Under the pieces are notes generated by a model, which made no database searches, was not told the DNA's origin, and worked only from the letters and a program-made list of their open reading frames with translations. From Acutalibacteraceae bacterium (lineage in GTDB: Bacteria; Bacillota; Clostridia; Oscillospirales; Acutalibacteraceae), in assembly GCA_045630265.1 (NCBI GenBank), contig JAZQSV010000041.1:525-64524 (forward strand): a DNA stretch of 64,000 nt. The letters are read 5' to 3'. Shown here in pieces: positions 46,866 to 55,533 of this stretch (position 1 is the stretch's first letter; each line of letters starts with the position of its first letter). A program made the position numbers and the translations under genes.

Positions 46866-47903
46866 CTAATTAAAATAGTCATCAAGGCTGGCAAAGGAAT
46901 AGCCCTCTGCCACTGCGGTGTCTATAATTCTTCCGAGAGCGTTTGCATTGTCTTTAGAAACAGCGTGGAGGAGTATTACGGCGCCGGGGTGGAAGCGGGA
47001 GGTAACGGTGGTGTGGGCGTAGTCCGGTCCCTTTTGAGTGGAGGTATCCCAGTCAGCATAGGCAACTGACCAAAAGACGGAGCGAAAACCAATAGAGGTA
47101 ACAAGCTCTAAAGCACATTCGGAATACGCTCCCTCTGGGAATCTGAAATAGGGGCTCGAATAACCAAAATTAGCTCTCAAATAATTATCTAAGGTGCCAA
47201 TTTCTTCCGCCATTTGGGGACGGGTAAGTTTTGGAAAGGAGGGATGGGTGGTACTGTGGTTGCCGACAATGTGCCCCTCATTTATCATACGTTCTACCAG
47301 GTAGGGGTTTTTCTTTGCGTAGTCAAGGGTTACGAAAAAAGCTGCCTTTACCTGCTTTTCTTTTAGGGAGTCTAAAATGCTGGCGGTAAGGTTTTGGTAC
47401 TCGTAGCCATTATCAAAGGTAAGGTACATTACTTTTTCCCTAGTTTTTGTGTCAAGGGCAAGAGCCTTTACATTTGGGAAACTGTCAAATGTGGCTTGGT
47501 TTGCAATCGACTGACTATGAGGAACTCCATTTTTTGCAACACCGTAGGAAAATCCGCGTCTTTCGGTATTAAGCCCCAATGAATTGTCGGGGTCGTTTAC
47601 GGTAAACGTAAATACCTGCAGTGGCTCTCTGGTAGGGAGTGTTACGTTAGGTAGCGGCGCCACACTGCTTACCTGCTCGGTGCTAACCGTAGGGCTACTG
47701 CCGACCTCTGCGCTTTGTAGCAAAGAAGAAGCGGCCTCTGTCTCCGACGGCGTTTTTGAAGACACGTTGTCCTTCCCAGAGCTCATCGCTTCTCCTGCTA
47801 AGGAAGAGGCGTTTTCTTTGATGTCATTTTCCTTTTTGCCCTTACAACCAAACAGCGAAAGGGTAAATATAATACAAAAAAACAAAGCAAAAATCCGCTT
47901 CAT
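46866..47903 (-). CDS. NodB-type polysaccharide deacetylase lipoprotein (PdaA-like)
   Basis: LSLFGC lipobox. YLTFDNGYEY, GHIVGNHSTTHPS, YFRFPEGAY. Confidence 0.8.
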   Translation of the reverse strand: MKRIFALFFCIIFTLSLFGCKGKKENDIKENASSLAGEAMSSGKDNVSSKTPSETEAASSLLQSAEVGSSPTVSTEQVSSVAPLPNVTLPTREPLQVFTFTVNDPDNSLGLNTERRGFSYGVAKNGVPHSQSIANQATFDSFPNVKALALDTKTREKVMYLTFDNGYEYQNLTASILDSLKEKQVKAAFFVTLDYAKKNPYLVERMINEGHIVGNHSTTHPSFPKLTRPQMAEEIGTLDNYLRANFGYSSPYFRFPEGAYSECALELVTSIGFRSVFWSVAYADWDTSTQKGPDYAHTTVTSRFHPGAVILLHAVSKDNANALGRIIDTAVAEGYSFASLDDYFN

Positions 47904-47989: not shown

Positions 47990-48026
47990 CAAAAAATCAC
48001 CCAATCTCCTTTTGGAAATTGGGTGA
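47990..48026 (-). terminator. terminator of the sugar operon
   Basis: Minus RNA reads UCACCCAAU-loop-AUUGGGUGA followed by U6. Confidence 0.75.
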
Positions 48027-48043
48027 AAAAATTAAGCTTTATT

Positions 48044-48976
48044 TTATTTCTTTACCATTTTTTTAACTTCTTCCAAAACGCGGCGGATGATTTCCTCCTC
48101 GCTTATATTGGAAGTAGCGCGGCCGTTTCCAACCGAGCCGAAAAGCTCCATTTTCTTAATGGTTTCCTGCTTAATGGCTTCAACTGCGGCGGGGATAAGG
48201 TCAATAATACCCTTATTCATATCGGTAAATTTGCTAAATTCTGCCTTTACTGCAGCAACGTTTATATCGGTGAAAATATTAACCTTGCTAATACCCTCTT
48301 TAATGGCCTGTCTGAAATCGTCATCAGTAAGGCCAGAGCCACCGTGTAGTACAAGGGGAACGTCTACGGTTTTGGCAATGGTGCGAATTCTGTCAAAATC
48401 AAGCTTAGGGGGAAGCTTATACGCACCGTGGGCGTTACCAACTGCAATAGCAAGAGCATCTACACCCGTTTTATCTACGTAATCCTTTGCCATTTTAGGG
48501 TCGGTGAAGAACTTAGAGGGGTCTGCCAAATGGCTGCTGCCCTCCGCCGAGCCCTCGTTATCACCTACGTGGCCAAGCTCACCCTCAATGGTAGCTCCAA
48601 AGGAGTGGGCAATATCTGCCATCTCCTTTACCTTTCTAACGTTTTCGTCGTAAGAATCGGTAGAGCAGTCGTACATAATAGACGTAAAGCCAAGCTCAAG
48701 TGCTTTAAGACAGGTTTCTTTTTTAAGGCCGTGGTCTAAATGGATTACAACCGGTACGTTTGCCTTTTTGGCCATAGGAAGAAGGTAATAGGAAACCTCC
48801 TCCAAAGGGCCGTAAGGGAAAAGCACCTCTGCGGTACCCATAATAACGGGAGAGCCGGTTTGCTCTGCGGCGGCAATAATACCGCGTGCAAGTTCTAAGT
48901 TTACTGCATTGAAAAGACCAACTGCATACTTGCCTTTTTTGGCATTATACAGTACATCGTTCATATTAACTAACAT
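48044..48976 (-). CDS. class II ketose-bisphosphate aldolase (FbaA/GatY/IolJ family)
   Basis: AVGLFNAVNLE, PVVIHLDHG, GELGHVG, LVLHGGSG. Confidence 0.85.
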   Translation of the reverse strand: MLVNMNDVLYNAKKGKYAVGLFNAVNLELARGIIAAAEQTGSPVIMGTAEVLFPYGPLEEVSYYLLPMAKKANVPVVIHLDHGLKKETCLKALELGFTSIMYDCSTDSYDENVRKVKEMADIAHSFGATIEGELGHVGDNEGSAEGSSHLADPSKFFTDPKMAKDYVDKTGVDALAIAVGNAHGAYKLPPKLDFDRIRTIAKTVDVPLVLHGGSGLTDDDFRQAIKEGISKVNIFTDINVAAVKAEFSKFTDMNKGIIDLIPAAVEAIKQETIKKMELFGSVGNGRATSNISEEEIIRRVLEEVKKMVKK

Positions 48977-48983
48977 CTTTTAG

Positions 48984-49967
48984 TTACACCTCCTGTTTTT
49001 TTCTTTCAAATTGACTGCAAAAATCTCTTATTTCATTTTCGGTAACAAGCCCGCTCGTTGCATCTGCACTACCAAGCGCCATAACTGCCGAGGCCGAAGC
49101 AAACTCCAGAATTTCTTTATCGGTCCACCCTTTATATATACCTATAAGTGAGCCGGCACAAAATGCGTCGCCCGCACCGGTAGTGCCCTTTATATACCCG
49201 ATTGGGAGCTTATATGAATAAACCTTGCTAAAGCCGTTTTTAGAAAGGCATACGGCATAGTCGGGCTTATGTATTATAACCTTTTCTTTTACGCCGAGTT
49301 CCATAAGCCGGTGGGCAATTTTTTCAATGTTTTGGTCGGTGGGTTCAATGCCTGTCAGCTTTCCTGCTTCTGTTTCGTTAATTATAAGGTAATCGGTATA
49401 TGGAATACAGGGAAGCACAAGTTTGTATCTGTCGGAATTTTCGCTTACCAAATCAATAGCGGTTTTAATGCCCTTTTCCCCTGCTTTTTTAAGGATTTTA
49501 AGACCATCGCCGTTATCTACCTTTTCAAGCAACAAAAAGTAGCCAAGCAGTAGAATTTTGGCGTCAAGGGTATTAAAATCAATGTCCTCCACACCGAAAT
49601 CCGCACTGGTACCGGGGTAGCAGAAAAAGGTACGCTGACCGCCTACAACGCTCATAACCTCGGTAAAGCTGGTAGCATCTGCATCTGAAACAACAACGCC
49701 TTTTGCATCAACACCGCTTTCTTTTAAGGTTTTTAGTACAAATGCGCCGTCATCGTCCTGTCCAACCTTACCAATGGCCTTAACGGTCATATCGGGGCAG
49801 ATGTTTTTTAAATCCAAGGTAACGTTCGGAACACAGCCGCCAACTGCCTTTTGCAGGCGGGAAATTTGGGTTAGCTCGCCGCTTTGCGGGTAGGCCTTAA
49901 TTTCATTGATTTTATCAACAATAACGCTGCCCGCAACGGCAATTCCGTTTCTTTTTGTGCTGGTCAT
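48984..49967 (-). CDS. PfkB/ribokinase-family carbohydrate kinase
   Basis: The GTTGAGDAFCAG anion-hole motif and a PfkB-like N-terminal GG region. Confidence 0.85.
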   Translation of the reverse strand: MTSTKRNGIAVAGSVIVDKINEIKAYPQSGELTQISRLQKAVGGCVPNVTLDLKNICPDMTVKAIGKVGQDDDGAFVLKTLKESGVDAKGVVVSDADATSFTEVMSVVGGQRTFFCYPGTSADFGVEDIDFNTLDAKILLLGYFLLLEKVDNGDGLKILKKAGEKGIKTAIDLVSENSDRYKLVLPCIPYTDYLIINETEAGKLTGIEPTDQNIEKIAHRLMELGVKEKVIIHKPDYAVCLSKNGFSKVYSYKLPIGYIKGTTGAGDAFCAGSLIGIYKGWTDKEILEFASASAVMALGSADATSGLVTENEIRDFCSQFERKKQEV

Positions 49968-49969
49968 TA

Positions 49970-50917
49970 TTAGTTACACTCCGCAACTAAGGGACCTGCA
50001 AGCTCATTTAGGAAGAAGAGCCTTCCGGGAAGGGTGGGAATGTAGGAAGAAGTAATCCAGGGAGTAGCACCGTAGCGAAGTGTCATCCAAAGGGACATAC
50101 CCTGCCACTGCATTCCACGTCCGAGTGTACCGTCGGCGCCGCCAATAGCATAGTCGGCTTTAAGGAAAAGACCGGGGCCAATGGTGTTAGCGCGGCAAGG
50201 AACCAAGGTGGTTCTGGACTTAAAGCTTGTAAGAGCATTCTGTTCAACCGTTAAAGGATGGATTTTAGCAGCAATTCTGTAAGGTGCCTCCTCCCACTCT
50301 TTTGCGGTTTCATAGTCGGCCGCAAAGGTGGGTTCCCAGAAAGCAATGTGGCACATTCTGCCAATACCGTAAACAAGTACAAGTTTTGCACCCTCTGCTT
50401 TAAGAGCATCAATTTTTGCGGGATATGTAGGCAGATTTTCTTTGGTTGCAAAGTTTCTCTGTTCTTTGGGAACTGTAAGCACTCCAAGAGGATTAAAAAG
50501 GGCCTGCTCCATAGCGTACTGGAATGCGCCGCTATTGTCGGGAGCTAAGGTGTTACCCTCTGAATCTGCCCATTCATCCATATTAAAGGTATGAACGTGC
50601 TCACAGGAAACCTGCCACTCTTTAAGGAAGTATACAACCCATTTATACATTCCCATAGGACCTACGGGAAGAATAAAAGCAATTTTTTCGTTTCTTTCCT
50701 TTGCAAGTTTAATTTGCATTGCAATTTCGTGTCCCATATATGTTTCGAACTCGCCTAAGGATTCACATTTAATGGGAGTAAATCCCTCATTCCAATGCGC
50801 CTGACGCTCGGTAATTTTTTCGGGAGCGTCGATACAAGCGTCAATTTTATCAAAATCCCAACCTGCGGGATAAAATCCCTCCAAAGCGGATCCCTTTACT
50901 GTAGAATTAAAATTCAT
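49970..50917 (-). CDS. NagB-like glucosamine-6-phosphate deaminase/isomerase-fold protein with N-terminal extension
   Basis: [15 protein letters not shown]...[11 protein letters not shown] aligns with the NagB segment LGLPTGGTP...VTFNMDEY. Confidence 0.7.
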
Positions 50918-50960
50918 AATATTTTTTCCCTTCCCTAATATAGTTTTATTACCCTTTATT

Positions 50961-51668
50961 TTAGGGTAAGTAACGTTTGGTTGTACCTTTTAGGTAAACT
51001 TGACATTGCTTAAAGCCCTCTGCATAGTCGGCGCCACACTGGAAGCCCCTGTATCTGCAGCAGGTTTTAACCATATCGGGGAAATCAATACCGTCGTGGT
51101 CGCGCATCCAAACAATTTGTGATTCGTGGCAATTAAGCATTTCAAGTTTTTTGTCAATATGCTCTGAAACGTCAACGAACTCTGTGGGGTTAAAGTTAAC
51201 ACCGCAAAGAGTATCCATATAGTAAACGGGGGTAAGTCTTGCATTCTTGCCGGAGCCCATATTGTAGTGGGGAACGGTTGCGGCAAAGCAAGCGTCAAAA
51301 ACAAGTTTGCTTGTTGCAACGTGGTCGGGCATATAGTCGTTGGGGTCGTGAGTAATAATAAAATCGGGGTCAACCTGCCTTATAATTTCAACTACCTTAT
51401 CTCTTGACTCTCTGTTATTGTCGTAGATTTCAAGGTCGTCAAAGCCGCCCCAAATGGTTTCAAAGCCACCAAGTTCGCCGCTGCGTTTTGCCTCATTAAT
51501 TCTCATATTAGAGAGCTCGTCGGGCATAATAACTTCGTGGCCTTGGTTGCCGCTGGAAAGGTGGCAAACAACAACCCTGTCGCCACGCTCTTTACATTTT
51601 AAAAGTGTTCCTGCACAGGCGATTTCCATATCATCGGGATGGCAGGATATTACTAAAACTGTATACAT
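50961..51668 (-). CDS. PIG-L/LmbE family N-acetylglucosaminyl deacetylase
   Basis: [17 protein letters not shown] plus HPDDMPDH-type metal ligands. The ATG at 51668 lies 6 nt after AGGAGG. Confidence 0.8.
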
Positions 51669-51699
51669 AAAGTACCTCCTGAGGAAATGAACCGTTTGG

Positions 51700-52701
51700 T
51701 TAATTCCATCTTCCTTTATCGTAGATTTCGCAAATAAGCTTTTGAATCTTAAGTGCTTCCTCACCGGTTATGTCGGGTTGTCTATCTTCTTCTACGGCAT
51801 TGTAAAAATCTTTAATTTGGCGAATGTGCTGGAAGCCCCAGTAATCCTTACCGCCCTCATAGTAAATACCGTCGTTTTCGGTGGAGGTGGAAAGCTTTGT
51901 GCCATCGTTAAAGGTAATCTCAACGTCGTCATAGCTCATAACAACCTTGCCGTTTTCGCAAAGAAGTCTGATTTCAATCGGGTCATCACAGCCGTAGTTA
52001 TTCATAGCCCAGAAAGAAAGTGTTGCGCCGTTTTTGTAACGAACAAAGCCCTCGCCGGTATCGTCAACCTCCATAATGGAGTGGCCGCGGTTGCTAAGGT
52101 GTGCCTGAACATCGGCTATTTCGTCATTTATAAACCAGTTAGCAAGGTCCAAGGAGTGGATTGCTTGGTCGATAATAACGCCACCGCCCTCTTTATCCCA
52201 GGTGCCTTTCCAGTCGGAAAGGGAGTAATAGGAGTCGGGCTTGCACCAGGTAAGTGTAACCCTGGCAGAGATAACCTTACCAAGCTTGCCGTTTTCAAGA
52301 TTTTCCTTAACAAGCTTGGAGGAGTTGTTGTATCGGCACTGGAATATAATGCCGTATTTCAGGCCCTTTTCCTTTGCAATCTCTACGTTTTTAAGGCCGT
52401 CCTCATACTTAATGCTCATCGGCTTTTCACAAAGAACGTTTACGCCATGTTCAAGCGCATAGCGGGAAACAACGGGGTGCAAATAGTGGGGTATACAAAC
52501 GTGTACAACGTCGGGCTTTTCTTTTTCTATAAGTTCTTTATAGTCGTAGTAAGCGGGAACGTTATATTTTTTGGCCGCCGCATCTGCGCGGTCTTTCTTA
52601 ATATCGCAAACACCAACAAGTGTGGCGTTTTCCAAGTGGTCACAGGAGGTGGCGTGCATTGTAAAAATTGAGCCACATCCAATAATTCCTACTCTAAGCA
52701 T
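51700..52701 (-). CDS. Gfo/Idh/MocA family oxidoreductase
   Basis: MLRVGIIGCGSI Rossmann N-terminus and the EKP motif (LCEKPMS). Confidence 0.85.
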   Translation of the reverse strand: MLRVGIIGCGSIFTMHATSCDHLENATLVGVCDIKKDRADAAAKKYNVPAYYDYKELIEKEKPDVVHVCIPHYLHPVVSRYALEHGVNVLCEKPMSIKYEDGLKNVEIAKEKGLKYGIIFQCRYNNSSKLVKENLENGKLGKVISARVTLTWCKPDSYYSLSDWKGTWDKEGGGVIIDQAIHSLDLANWFINDEIADVQAHLSNRGHSIMEVDDTGEGFVRYKNGATLSFWAMNNYGCDDPIEIRLLCENGKVVMSYDDVEITFNDGTKLSTSTENDGIYYEGGKDYWGFQHIRQIKDFYNAVEEDRQPDITGEEALKIQKLICEIYDKGRWN

Positions 52702-53677
52702 TGAAAGATAACTCCTTCATTAAGAATTTTAAAGAAGCTACAGCAGAAGAAAGCTCGGCTCTTTCAATTTTTTCACCGTTCTTAGCACGCTCGGTAAAAT
52801 ATACAAGCTCGTTGTAATAGCCGCCAAGGTCAGAAATGTTTCCGCCTGCTTTTTCGCCACCTGCAAGTTGCTTTTTCTCTATAACAATTTCCTTTGCCTC
52901 GTCTTTGGTGTAAACCATAAATTTACCGCCTGCATTTTCAACAACGGCGTTTTCAAATACAACTCTGAATCCTGCATCAAAAGCGTGAGTAGCAGGTAAA
53001 TCCCAGGTACCTTCTACAGTTACACAGCAGTCATCATACTGCATAAGTGTGCTAACGTAGGAGTATTTTTCACCAAGTGAATTCTTAACCGAGTAAAGAG
53101 CTTTGGGCTCACCCAAAAGGGAAAGAACGTAGTCAACGTCGTGAATATGTAAATCCTGTCCAGCGCCGCCTGAAAGGGTAAAGTCCAAAAGCCAGTTGTT
53201 CCAACCCCAGTCGGGACGGGGGCTAAGGCGCTTAAAGAAAGCGTTTACGATTTTGCCGTATTTATTTTCATCTACAATTTCTTTAAGTGCAACGTATTCG
53301 TCCCAGAAGCGGATAACCTGGCCGATTTGTACGCTACAACCTGTGGCCTTGGATTTTTCTATTAAAGCCTCGCCCTCTTCGGTAGTGAGGGTAACCGGTT
53401 TTTCAACAAAAAGGTGTTTAACCTTATCCATAGCTGCTAAAGCATATTTAGCGTGAAGATATGTGGGAAGACAAACGTCGATAACGTCTACGTCTGCGTT
53501 TTCGATAAGCTCCATACCGTCGCCGTAGATTTTAGCATCGGTTCCCTCAGCAATTGCCTCGGCCTTTTCTTTTCTTATATCGGCCACAGCCGCAAGGGTT
53601 ACACCCTCAATGTTTTTGTAGCAGTTTGCATGCATTTGTCCCATGAAACCGCAACCAATAAGACCTACTTTAAGCAT
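52694..53677 (-). CDS. Gfo/Idh/MocA family oxidoreductase (second paralog)
   Basis: MLKVGLIGCGFMG and VEKPVT. Its stop overlaps the start of the next gene by 8 nt. Confidence 0.85.
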   Translation of the reverse strand: MLKVGLIGCGFMGQMHANCYKNIEGVTLAAVADIRKEKAEAIAEGTDAKIYGDGMELIENADVDVIDVCLPTYLHAKYALAAMDKVKHLFVEKPVTLTTEEGEALIEKSKATGCSVQIGQVIRFWDEYVALKEIVDENKYGKIVNAFFKRLSPRPDWGWNNWLLDFTLSGGAGQDLHIHDVDYVLSLLGEPKALYSVKNSLGEKYSYVSTLMQYDDCCVTVEGTWDLPATHAFDAGFRVVFENAVVENAGGKFMVYTKDEAKEIVIEKKQLAGGEKAGGNISDLGGYYNELVYFTERAKNGEKIERAELSSAVASLKFLMKELSFNA

Positions 53678-53682
53678 AGTTT

Positions 53683-54519
53683 TTACCTCCCTAAAATTTT
53701 ATCCATAGCGTTGGATGTGTTGTATATAATTGTTTCGGTGTAATGTGTGTAGTTAGGAATCATCTCTGCGCTCACCCAACCGTCATAACCAACCGATTTA
53801 AGTGCATTCATAACCTCGGGGTAATTAATATCACCTGCAAGAAGGTCAACAAAGCCATGAAGTCCGCCGGCAGCAACGCGGTAATCTTTAAAGTGCACCT
53901 TTTTAATGCGGTCGCCAAGAACCTTAATCCAGTGCTCGGGGTAACCGTTAAAGAGTACGTTACCAACGTCAAAATAGCTACCAACGTATTTACTGTCTAC
54001 CTTGTCAATGAAATCACGCATTTCCATGGGGGATACAAGGAATTTGTTCCATACGTTTTCAAGGCCTATTTCTACCTTGTATTTTTCAGCATATTCTTTA
54101 AGCTCGGTTATAGCTTCCAAGCTTCTTTGGTATGTGGTTTCGTAATCAATAACCTTACCGGGAGCCGCAAAGTCTGCGTTTACAGTACCGGGAATAACAA
54201 GGATGGTTTCTGCTCCCAGTATGCTTGCGGTTTCAAGATGTTTTTTAACAATGTCCTTTGCCCTTTCGCGAACGGCCGGATCATCGTCGTTAAGCCAGTT
54301 GTCCCAGTAAAGACCGCTTGCAACGCTATAAAGCTCAATGCCACAGTCTTTTGCCATATTTTTTACTTTAAGTAAATCTTTCTCTGTTGACTCTAAAGAA
54401 ACCTCGCCGGTTGCATCTAAAGCAACCTCAACACCCTCAAAACCTGCCTTTTTTGCAAGTTTAAAGTTGTTTTCCAGTGTATCTACCGGAAAAGACCAGA
54501 TGCTAATACCTTTTTTCAT
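53683..54519 (-). CDS. xylose-isomerase-like TIM-barrel sugar-phosphate isomerase/epimerase (IolE/IolI fold)
   Basis: FEGVEVAL, IGLENVWN and YFDVGN are the metal-binding pattern of the AP_endonuc_2 family. The ATG at 54519 follows an AGGAGG SD. Confidence 0.8.
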   Translation of the reverse strand: MKKGISIWSFPVDTLENNFKLAKKAGFEGVEVALDATGEVSLESTEKDLLKVKNMAKDCGIELYSVASGLYWDNWLNDDDPAVRERAKDIVKKHLETASILGAETILVIPGTVNADFAAPGKVIDYETTYQRSLEAITELKEYAEKYKVEIGLENVWNKFLVSPMEMRDFIDKVDSKYVGSYFDVGNVLFNGYPEHWIKVLGDRIKKVHFKDYRVAAGGLHGFVDLLAGDINYPEVMNALKSVGYDGWVSAEMIPNYTHYTETIIYNTSNAMDKILGR

Positions 54520-54651
54520 CACATTACCTCCTTGTATTTTTAAAACCATTGTGATATTATAATTATAAATCATAATATAAATTTTCAGTATATATTTTTT
54601 TATCCGAAATGTGCACTTTTGTACACCATTATTTTAAACTAGGGGATAATT

Positions 54652-55533
54652 ATGAAAGCCACATACATAAAAACAAAATTTCAAAGTGTTGTAAACATAT
54701 CAAAAATTGTAACGGCCCATTACTATGAGTTCGACCGCAATTTTATTTTCGAGGGTGAAAGCCATGACTTTTGGGAAATGGTTTACGTAGATAAGGGCAG
54801 TGTGCAAATTAGAAGGGACGAAGAAAATATTGCCCTAAGCCAAGGGGAACTTGTTTTTCACAGACCCAATGAATTTCACTCTATAAAAGCGCTTGATTCT
54901 TCACCAAATTTCTTCGTTATTTCCTTTGTTTGCGACTCTCCTATGATGCAGTATTTCGAGAAGTTTAATACGGTGCTTAAAAAGGAATTAAGACCGTTTT
55001 TGTCCTCGGTTATCAAGGAGGCAGAGCAGGTGTATTTACTGCCCAAAAACGATCCTAATTTAAAGAAATTGAAGAGAAGTGACAACGCCCCGTTTGGCGG
55101 CGAGCAGCTTATAAAAACGTATTTGGAACAGCTTCTTATTTTGCTCGTTCGAGACATAACGAAAAAGGGGGATACCCAAATTTTCCCCTCAAAGGAAAGT
55201 ATGGAAAACCACCTTGTAACCGGAATTAAGGAGTATATAGAAAACAACATAGAAAACACCGTAAGGGTTGCCGATATTTGCAAAAAATTCGGCTACAGTA
55301 AAAGCTATCTCAGTAAGCTTTTCCATGAGCAGTGCGGGGAAACCCTAGGGGTTTATACAACCCGTATGAAAATACGCAGAGCAAAGCAACTTATAAGGGA
55401 AGGAAGTCTTAATTTTTCACAAATTTCTGTACGCTTAGACTTTGATAATCCGCAGTATTTTTCCCGAGTTTGTAAGAGAGTAACAAAAATGTCACCCAGC
55501 GAATTTAAGGATTCGCTTACTTTTAAAAATTAG
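54652..55533 (+). CDS. AraC family transcriptional regulator (cupin sensor + HTH_18), divergent from the sugar operon
   Basis: N-terminal cupin (GELVFHRPNEFHS). C-terminal AraC HTH (FGYSKSYLSKLFHEQCG...FDNPQYFSRVCKR). Confidence 0.9.
   Translation: MKATYIKTKFQSVVNISKIVTAHYYEFDRNFIFEGESHDFWEMVYVDKGSVQIRRDEENIALSQGELVFHRPNEFHSIKALDSSPNFFVISFVCDSPMMQYFEKFNTVLKKELRPFLSSVIKEAEQVYLLPKNDPNLKKLKRSDNAPFGGEQLIKTYLEQLLILLVRDITKKGDTQIFPSKESMENHLVTGIKEYIENNIENTVRVADICKKFGYSKSYLSKLFHEQCGETLGVYTTRMKIRRAKQLIREGSLNFSQISVRLDFDNPQYFSRVCKRVTKMSPSEFKDSLTFKN

Follow-up and report, generated by a model that had tools for sequence, protein, structure and literature searches.

What does a gut bacterium degrade with an operon that joins a PIG-L deacetylase and a NagB-like protein to a sugar kinase, an aldolase and three further enzymes, and in which order would these enzymes act? 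The question is raised by seven minus-strand genes at 48044-54519 of a 64,000-nucleotide stretch (the window) of contig JAZQSV010000041.1 from an Acutalibacteraceae bacterium (assembly GCA_045630265.1), a gut Clostridia metagenome-assembled genome (MAG) of 1.43 Mb that is 83% complete. An initial annotation of the window had described them as an operon of amino-sugar flavour divergent from an AraC-type regulator, with neither a transporter nor a glycosidase inside. The seven open reading frames (ORFs; 48044-54573 before correction of the first start) and the divergent AraC ORF (54652-55533) lie where it had placed them, Pfam and NCBIfam confirmed the families, and no transporter or glycoside hydrolase was found among the seven operon genes. 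The genes are tightly packed and, judged on sequence, appear to form a genuine operon.

Mucin, glycosaminoglycans, chitin and bacterial envelopes supply the gut with amino sugars, which are major nutrients there. The current maps of their catabolism hold only the phosphorylated Nag, Aga and Nan routes (PMC12118421). The operon is probably a variant of amino-sugar catabolism with a substrate class that is new to the NagB fold. In the order of steps that we prefer, and to which we assign a probability of about one half, the PIG-L protein would remove the acetyl group of a free, unphosphorylated N-acetyl amino sugar, and the long NagB-family enzyme would then carry out aldose-ketose isomerization and deamination of the unphosphorylated 2-amino-aldose, yielding a 2-ketose and ammonia. 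This ketose would next be phosphorylated by the PfkB kinase, with C1 as the likeliest site by analogy with YdjH and ketohexokinase, after which the class II aldolase would split the ketose phosphate into dihydroxyacetone phosphate (DHAP) and an aldehyde. The NagK/NagA/NagB and Aga routes phosphorylate before they deaminate; here the order would be inverted. We infer the order of the steps, the phosphorylation state and site, the role of the epimerase described below and the identity of the sugar, for which epimers of N-acetylgalactosamine (GalNAc), N-acetylmannosamine (ManNAc) or N-acetylglucosamine (GlcNAc) are the simplest candidates.

The PIG-L deacetylase and the NagB-like protein

The PIG-L/LmbE zinc deacetylase is encoded at 50961-51668 on the minus strand and, read from a conserved ATG, has 235 amino acids. 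It matches PF02585 with 97.1 bits (gathering threshold 28.2), and its translation contains the HPDD zinc motif and a PDH motif. It stays below the equivalog cut-offs of both BshB1 (122.4 bits; cut-off 182.5) and MshB (37.5; 224), and its best solved relatives are the diacetylchitobiose deacetylases 8bgn, 3wl4 and 3we7, which act on free GlcNAc or chitobiose. To our knowledge, all characterized relatives act on unphosphorylated GlcNAc moieties, and an unphosphorylated N-acetyl-amino-sugar is the substrate that we propose here. The GlcNAc-cyclitol put forward in the initial annotation had to be given up, as nothing indicates a cyclitol.

The NagB-like protein (49970-50917, minus strand; 315 amino acids) has no match in Pfam and scores 41.8 bits against TIGR00502 (cut-off 236.9) and 21.2 against the AgaI model PRK09762 (cut-off 271). 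Its AlphaFold model, with a mean predicted local distance difference test (pLDDT) score of 90.8, has the NagB fold; Foldseek aligns it with solved NagB structures at E 1e-15 to 2e-16 and TMt 0.73-0.85. This bears out the earlier identification of a NagB-like protein with an N-terminal extension, which measures about 50 residues. D114, H190 and E195 correspond to D72, H143 and E148 of the E. coli enzyme and are invariant in 101 family members. The TGGT loop of NagB is shortened to PVGP, and the positions of R172 and K208 hold T/S and G, respectively. We propose that this protein is a 2-amino-aldose isomerase/deaminase.

A core and an accessory module

We scored the neighbours of the NagB-like gene in 80 genome and 80 metagenome loci that carry relatives of the protein at 60-97% identity; the metagenome set consists of window-type relatives only and contains none of the distant P0141/P0195-type members of the family. 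Counts refer to the 44 loci whose flanks reach 5 kb or more upstream and 4 kb or more downstream of the NagB-like gene. A PIG-L gene adjoins the NagB-like gene in 42 of the 44, and the two proteins are a genuine functional pair. A PfkB kinase gene stands beside the NagB-like gene in 33 loci, and a divergent AraC gene of the same family is likewise found in 33. Class II aldolases (16/44) and MtlD-like dehydrogenases (11/44) never occur together (0/44). This mutual exclusivity, seen over 27 loci, suggests that the kinase product can be processed in either of two ways, such as by splitting of a ketose 1-phosphate or by redox isomerization via a hexitol phosphate. The TIM barrel that opens the window operon is present in only 9 of the loci, in 8 of them together with a gene for a Gfo/Idh/MocA oxidoreductase. 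Such modules, which in the window comprise the TIM barrel and two oxidoreductases (Ox1 and Ox2), are also found as stand-alone AraC-controlled operons.

Thus, the PIG-L and NagB-like genes, usually with a PfkB kinase and then an aldolase or an MtlD-like dehydrogenase, are the core, and TIM-Ox1-Ox2 is an accessory module. Because the TIM module is present in only 8-9 of the 44 loci and often lies on a separate contig, the seven-gene arrangement of the window is a minority fusion of the two, and the single seven-enzyme pathway of the initial annotation no longer holds. An even sample of 299 genomes from the class shows TIM orthologues strongly enriched in genomes with the NagB-like gene (19/30 vs 37/269; odds ratio 10.8, p 1e-8, uncorrected for phylogeny), and in these genomes the two genes are often unlinked, on different contigs. 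We also considered that the window operon was a clean fusion of an AraC unit of the TIM-module type to the core, and discarded the idea because PIG-L-adjacent and TIM-adjacent regulators are intermingled in the AraC tree, with 11 label changes for 15 rows. Shuffling of modules within one AraC regulator family is all that this tree would support.

Further neighbours in the related loci include a GH20C hexosaminidase, DUF4838, GH39 and GH88 proteins, a NanA-like lyase, DegT aminotransferases and a second, NagA-like amidohydrolase, all of which release or process free amino sugars. Unlike the window operon, related loci often do carry GH20, GH88, GH39 or DUF4838 genes, which weakens oxidative glycoside cleavage as the reason for the missing hydrolase.

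A recurrent large cluster, present in L130 (1040-10903) and in L165 (G041:C2, 2345-14355), combines a NanA-like lyase (234 bits; cut-off 281), a ceramidase-like protein, DegT, PIG-L and NagB-like proteins with a NagA-like amidohydrolase, several Gfo/Idh/MocA, aldo-keto reductase and short-chain dehydrogenase/reductase (SDR) enzymes, and a kinase with an MtlD-like dehydrogenase. Speculatively, this enzyme set would suit the catabolism of a nonulosonic acid or of a di-N-acetylated deoxy sugar.

Phosphorylation before or after deamination

The PfkB-family kinase (48984-49967, minus strand; PF00294, 118 bits), which we propose to be a ketose kinase of ribokinase/YdjH type, scores far below the cut-off of every NCBIfam equivalog, including IolC (75.1 bits; cut-off 300) and the hexose-kinase (1-phosphofructokinase) models (47-50; 216-292). 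Its solved relatives are ribokinases, with E. coli YdjH (3h49, 2.5e-15) second-best, and LacC and PfkB-2 stand further from it than ribokinase, YdjH and IolC do. The class II ketose-(bis)phosphate aldolase (48044-48976, minus strand; PF01116, 299 bits) has E. coli YdjI (6ofu, 1.8e-55) as its best solved relative and stays below the cut-offs of GatY (240 bits; 383) and KbaY (169; 542). According to work of the Raushel laboratory, YdjH reportedly phosphorylates a 2-ketose at C1 and YdjI is said to cleave the ketose 1-phosphate to DHAP and an aldehyde. The place of both among the nearest solved relatives, distant as they are, suggests that C1 phosphorylation and cleavage of a monophosphate may also take place in the operon pathway. 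The E. coli ydj cluster differs from it in its Zn-dependent dehydrogenases, its major facilitator superfamily (MFS) transporters, its lack of amino-sugar enzymes and its preference for long keto-uronates. We rejected the assignment of the operon aldolase as the glycolytic Fba. A Bacillus-type Fba with 33% identity to it is encoded amid housekeeping genes on another host contig (C3), and the aldolase slot in related loci holds three non-orthologous class II types.

That the amino sugar would be unphosphorylated when it is deaminated is suggested by five lines of evidence. First, two metagenome loci, L146 (714-5854) and L161 (947-7389), have in place of the PfkB kinase and class II aldolase genes those of a rhamnulokinase, which passes its equivalog cut-off (539.6 vs 527.95 bits), and of a RhaD-aldolase/SDR fusion, located 3-24 nt upstream of the PIG-L and NagB-like genes. 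Neither locus shows a RhaA isomerase, so the NagB-like protein must supply the ketose that is phosphorylated at C1. In the simplest reading, the PIG-L and NagB-like proteins would replace RhaA by turning an N-acetyl amino sugar unable to carry a 6-phosphate into a (6-deoxy) 2-ketose, and these loci may encode a pathway for N-acetyl-L-rhamnosamine or N-acetyl-quinovosamine. Second, in Christensenella massiliensis the PIG-L/NagB-like genes are accompanied by a CUT2 monosaccharide ATP-binding cassette (ABC) transporter, a mutarotase (aldose 1-epimerase), a Gfo/Idh/MocA protein and two SDRs. Third, Enzyme I of the phosphotransferase system (PTS) was not found in the host genome, which is 83% complete. 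Fourth, the closest solved relatives of the PIG-L protein are of the Dac type. Finally, the host has a separate locus, on contig C38, with a canonical NagA and a second long NagB paralogue. Together with the separate Fba, this locus indicates that the operon is not the host's standard route for GlcNAc 6-phosphate and that its aldolase is pathway-specific.

The operon shares with canonical Nag and Aga catabolism (NagK or PTS, NagA and NagB; AgaA/AgaS/AgaI, LacC/PfkA and KbaY/GatY) de-N-acetylation, isomerization and deamination on a NagB fold with catalytic Asp, His and Glu, phosphorylation, and class II aldol cleavage. It differs in that its deacetylase is of the PIG-L family and not an amidohydrolase, no SIS protein is present and the NagB-like protein is a divergent long form, in a host without PTS that keeps its NagA and NagB paralogue elsewhere; phosphorylation, moreover, is proposed to follow deamination. 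The canonical GalNAc/tagatose pathway, which the initial annotation had allowed for, does not describe the operon, to which neither AgaI, a SIS protein, PTS Enzyme I, a tagatose-6-phosphate kinase nor GatY/KbaY could be assigned. A parallel to the first step is the chitin pathway of Thermococcus and Pyrococcus, in which the PIG-L-family Dac acts on unphosphorylated GlcNAc or chitobiose before phosphorylation. That pathway differs in its SIS-type deaminase GlmD, which acts on glucosamine 6-phosphate, and in its ADP-dependent kinase, and it contains no aldolase, NagB-fold enzyme or Gfo/TIM module.

The parallel with the archaea can also be turned into a rival order, in which the PIG-L protein acts on a free N-acetylhexosamine (HexNAc; e.g., GalNAc), the PfkB kinase makes the hexosamine 6-phosphate, the NagB-like protein, working like AgaI, gives tagatose or fructose 6-phosphate, and a housekeeping phosphofructokinase (PFK) makes the 1,6-bisphosphate that the class II aldolase cleaves. 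In the archaeal Dac pathway the PIG-L step can indeed come before the kinase step, and the aldolase scores about equally against the FBA, GatY and KbaY models. We consider this phosphorylated order unlikely, although several observations weigh for it and against the order that we prefer. The gene order PIG-L-kinase-NagB-like of loci L079, L080, L082, L085 and L087 suits a kinase acting before the deaminase equally well, and in L057 a PFK gene follows the kinase. The MtlD-like partner of other loci (293 bits) is best classified as a mannitol-1-phosphate 5-dehydrogenase, which is easiest explained by a fructose 6-phosphate product. In the NagB-like protein, K233, R235 and R267 are basic, invariant and 1-5 residues away from the R172 and K208 phosphate-ligand positions of NagB, and they are kept even in the rhamnulokinase-linked loci, so an anion site may persist there; for this reason we dropped the argument that the phosphate ligands of NagB have been lost. 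Furthermore, the NagB-like proteins of the loci behind the unphosphorylated-substrate argument are only 62-63% identical to the window protein. Two more points concern the operon as a whole: the TIM-Ox-Ox(-TIM) order of several related loci is that of the glycoside-cleaving cluster P2B11, discussed below, and a search of the host genome yielded no transporter assignable to the operon.

What tells against the phosphorylated order is that the rhamnulokinase and RhaD-type contexts without RhaA are incompatible with a 6-phosphorylated or 6-deoxy intermediate, that the kinase resembles ribokinase, YdjH and IolC more than LacC or PfkB-2, and that NagA and a NagB paralogue already serve the phosphorylated route in this genome. 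PfkB kinases, in addition, typically take ketoses and furanoses, not aldopyranosamines.

Deamination ahead of phosphorylation may even be a general scheme. The PIG-L and long NagB proteins might constitute a generic module that deacetylates and then deaminates without phosphorylation, and that converts many free 2-acetamido sugars into 2-ketoses for C1 phosphorylation and cleavage; we hold this extension to be tentative, at somewhat less than even odds. Candidate substrates would be HexNAc epimers, 6-deoxy sugars (e.g., N-acetyl-rhamnosamine, N-acetyl-quinovosamine), ManNAc released by sialic-acid-type lyases, and, in loci with DegT aminotransferases, di-N-acetyl sugars.

The C. massiliensis locus is part of a tandemly duplicated block of ~11.7 kb with two NagB-like copies (L163/L164; C1:2266000-2299000 of G195, a complete genome). 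Each copy includes a ROK regulator besides the CUT2 ABC transporter, Gfo/Idh/MocA, two SDR, mutarotase, PIG-L and NagB-paralogue genes, and the block is without a PfkB kinase or aldolase.

The TIM-barrel/oxidoreductase module

The first gene of the operon (53683-54519, minus strand; ORF callable up to 54573) encodes a xylose-isomerase-like TIM barrel (PF01261, 159 bits), which we propose to be a keto-sugar epimerase. Its metal-site residues E172, D202, H227 and E270 (ORF numbering) are invariant and form an E-D-H-E site of the ketose-epimerase type. The top Foldseek matches of its AlphaFold model (pLDDT 85) are UlaE, D-tagatose/psicose 3-epimerases, TM0416, IolI and the 3-keto-glucoside 4-epimerase YcjR (6wn6; E 8.5e-14, TMt 0.79, sequence identity ~18%), and all of the top 50 structural neighbours are epimerases or isomerases, with no 3-keto-glycoside lyase among them. 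A profile search of the PDB likewise led to these epimerases. Ox1 (52694-53677, minus strand; PF01408 and PF22725) has DgpA as its best solved relative (87 bits). The best solved relatives of Ox2 (51700-52701, minus strand) are the glucuronide 3-dehydrogenase of fosmid P2B11 (8tdi; 7e-41, 36% identity), the WlbA-type UDP-GlcNAcA 3-dehydrogenases 3q2i and 3q2k, and DgpA. Of the six named active-site residues of P2B11 Oxido1, Ox2 keeps the equivalents of W179, Y185 and H209 and replaces the other three conservatively (N147Q, R181K, N205D). By sequence, Ox2 is a probable member of the pyranose C3-dehydrogenase group.

We favour the reading that this module is a 3-keto epimerization shunt that would widen the range of N-acetylhexosamine epimers fed to the core. 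One dehydrogenase would oxidize the C3 hydroxyl of an N-acetylhexosamine, or of its glycoside, the TIM barrel would epimerize the centre beside the keto group, and the second dehydrogenase, for which we propose Ox1, would reduce the ketone, thereby making an epimer that is useless to the core acceptable to it. That WlbA, a relative of Ox2, acts on a 2-acetamido sugar supports this reading. The closest precedent is E. coli YcjQ/YcjR/YcjS, which interconverts gulosides and glucosides via 3-keto-glycosides (functions summarized in PMC11543891) and likewise consists of two sugar dehydrogenases and one xylose-isomerase-like TIM-barrel epimerase. The window module matches this composition in its TIM-Ox1-Ox2 genes, its invariant E-D-H-E site and its epimerase neighbours, and the catalysis itself is predicted. 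Differences are that YcjQ is a Zn-dependent alcohol dehydrogenase, whereas both operon dehydrogenases are Gfo/Idh/MocA proteins, and that the ycj cluster lacks amino-sugar enzymes and includes phosphorylases as well as an ABC transporter.

The initial annotation had proposed instead that the dehydrogenases and the TIM barrel cleave a glycoside oxidatively. Clusters of this kind are known from Alistipes (AL1-3), B. thetaiotaomicron (BT2156-2160) and fosmid P2B11 (Nasseri et al., bioRxiv 10.1101/2024.03.25.586180), and they too pair 3-dehydrogenases of the Gfo/Idh/MocA family with TIM barrels of the 'sugar phosphate isomerase' kind. The source of P2B11 is a Gram-positive gut bacterium, and this cluster has neither a transporter nor a regulator nearby. 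Applied to the window, Ox2 or Ox1 and the TIM barrel would split an N-acetyl-amino-glycoside by oxidation, elimination and hydration, and so feed HexNAc to the core in place of the missing glycoside hydrolase. The kinship of Ox2 with P2B11 Oxido1 agrees with this, as does the TIM-Ox-Ox-TIM order of related loci, which is the Iso1-Oxido1-Oxido2-Iso2 order of P2B11. Part of the proposal stands, in that Ox2 probably falls within the sugar C3-dehydrogenase group. The cleavage itself looks unlikely: the characterized AL1/BT1 lyases have a His-Asp-His site, not E-D-H-E, no DUF1080-type lyase/hydratase was found by Pfam among the operon proteins, the BT_2158 and BT_2159 family models score 29-38 bits (cut-offs 650-750), and the C. 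massiliensis locus indicates a monosaccharide substrate. Unlike those clusters, moreover, the window module is fused to amino-sugar enzymes. The E-D-H-E site, the epimerase neighbours and the YcjQRS-like composition lead us to favour the epimerization shunt.

The relatives of Ox2 raise a further alternative. The best of them act on uronic-acid sugars (the glucuronide and UDP-GlcNAcA 3-dehydrogenases), and the TIM barrel matches both IolO and the fructuronate/tagaturonate epimerase TM0416. Keto-uronates are the preferred substrates of YdjH and YdjI, and the invariant basic residues of the NagB-like protein could bind a carboxylate. A 2-acetamido-2-deoxy-hexuronic acid (GlcNAcA, ManNAcA or GalNAcA) would then be converted to fructuronate or tagaturonate, and a YdjH-like 1-kinase and YdjI-like aldolase would yield DHAP and tartronate semialdehyde. 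This route is very unlikely: the alternative downstream enzyme of related loci is MtlD-like and not UxuB/UxaB-like (25-43 bits), no UxuA/UxaA, 2-keto-3-deoxygluconate or glycerate genes lie nearby, and the rhamnulokinase contexts indicate neutral sugars.

Lastly, the mixture of TIM barrel, oxidoreductases, kinase and aldolase had been likened to inositol catabolism. There are family-level matches, all weak, to IolG, IolE, IolC and IolO, and a pathway for inositol or an aminocyclitol such as GlcNAc-inositol, related to the iol operon, is nonetheless hardly credible. The equivalog scores fall 3- to 7-fold short of the cut-offs (IolG 130.7 and 118.5 bits vs 355 for the two Gfo/Idh/MocA proteins, IolE 42.3 vs 290, and IolC as given above), the TIM profile reaches solved IolE structures only at E 0.03-0.19, IolD and IolB are absent from the seven proteins and the flanks, and inositol genes occur in none of the ~170 related loci. 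The likeness to inositol catabolism fails on all of these counts.

Host genome and the search for a transporter

The initial annotation had advised a search for the cognate transporter elsewhere in the genome. The sole lead is an MFS gene in the region C64:51200-56536, whose product is 67% identical to the operon-linked MFS transporter of locus L029; no homologue of the C. massiliensis solute-binding protein (SBP) or permease, nor of the SBP of locus L098, was found in the host genome. The MFS gene adjoins a GH2-like gene, and another xylose-isomerase-like TIM barrel is encoded nearby. The host genome also encodes three ROK proteins.

The separate NagA locus (C38:10510-15645) consists, in order, of genes for a transaldolase/fructose-6-phosphate aldolase-like protein, NagA, a 325-amino-acid long NagB paralogue, an aldose 1-epimerase and a 444-amino-acid protein with no Pfam match. 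The paralogue is 30% identical to the operon protein and has an N-terminal extension too. Proteins of similar size to the 444-amino-acid one, with weak matches to neutral ceramidase, occur in the PIG-L/NagB-like loci L130 and L165, a likeness in size alone.

Distribution and novelty of the NagB-like family

The NagB-like protein occurs in roughly a fifth (57) of 300 genomes sampled evenly from the class, across 31 genera, and is absent from the ten sampled relatives of the host's family and order. As its presence is so patchy, and as MAGs with different family labels carry proteins that are 85-93% identical, lateral spread is suggested. In sequence space the family is narrow, with 99 representative clusters at E < 1e-30, and it is abundant in gut metagenomes, where thousands of its proteins are publicly annotated as 'glucosamine-6-phosphate isomerase'. 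A 2025 review of gut amino-sugar metabolism lists no PIG-L/NagB-like route (PMC12118421), and full-text searches of the literature gave us no description of PIG-L/LmbE and NagB-like clusters as an amino-sugar route, including in papers on YdjH/YdjI and on Christensenella amino sugars.

If the proposed order of steps is true, this label is wrong for the whole family, one pathway is missing from metabolic models built for abundant uncultured Clostridia and for Christensenella, and a substrate class is added to those of the NagB fold. If the generic module is true as well, it would give this fold a new activity and amino-sugar catabolism a second general logic. Various kinase/aldolase pairs, epimerase shunts, aminotransferases and lyases are shuffled with the core, and these combinations are a natural guide to substrates among the rare bacterial amino sugars. 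With C. massiliensis as a cultured carrier, the question is directly testable.

Operon structure and control region

Two gene starts were corrected. The TIM barrel begins at M19 (54519), a start that is kept in 9 homologues and preceded by AAGGAGG at 54530-54536, and the PIG-L protein begins at the ATG at 51668, with AGGAGG 7 nt upstream and homologues of 234-235 amino acids. From the promoter end, the genes are separated by 5 nt, an 8-nt overlap, 31 nt, 43 nt, 2 nt and 7 nt. The divergent regulator (54652-55533, plus strand) has an N-terminal cupin/AraC_binding domain and an HTH_18 domain (PF12833, PF00165 and PF02311), and probably senses the sugar. Four orthologous intergenic regions, flanked by AraC genes whose products share 63-83% identity, were aligned and gave two blocks of invariant columns. 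The first, GTGYACAAAARTGMACRT at 54607-54626, contains the palindrome AAATGTGCAC/GTGCACTTT (I4) and is a putative operator. The second, TATAATTATAATATCACAA at 54549-54567 on the minus strand, resembles a -10 element and, by consensus alone, is the putative promoter of the operon. A strong intrinsic terminator at 47997-48026 on the minus strand, with a 13-bp stem containing 6 GC pairs followed by a T-run, lies 17 nt past the aldolase stop codon.

Directly downstream of this terminator, at 46866-47903 on the minus strand, is a gene for a PdaA-like polysaccharide deacetylase of the delta-lactam type (231 bits; cut-off 298). It has a long N-terminal extension and its own promoter-like site, and is probably a sporulation gene unrelated to the operon. 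The G+C content is ~44% at 48000-54000 of the window, falls to 37-38% in the next 3 kb and is 30-34% beyond, a profile that, taken with the patchy phylogenetic distribution, is compatible with lateral acquisition.

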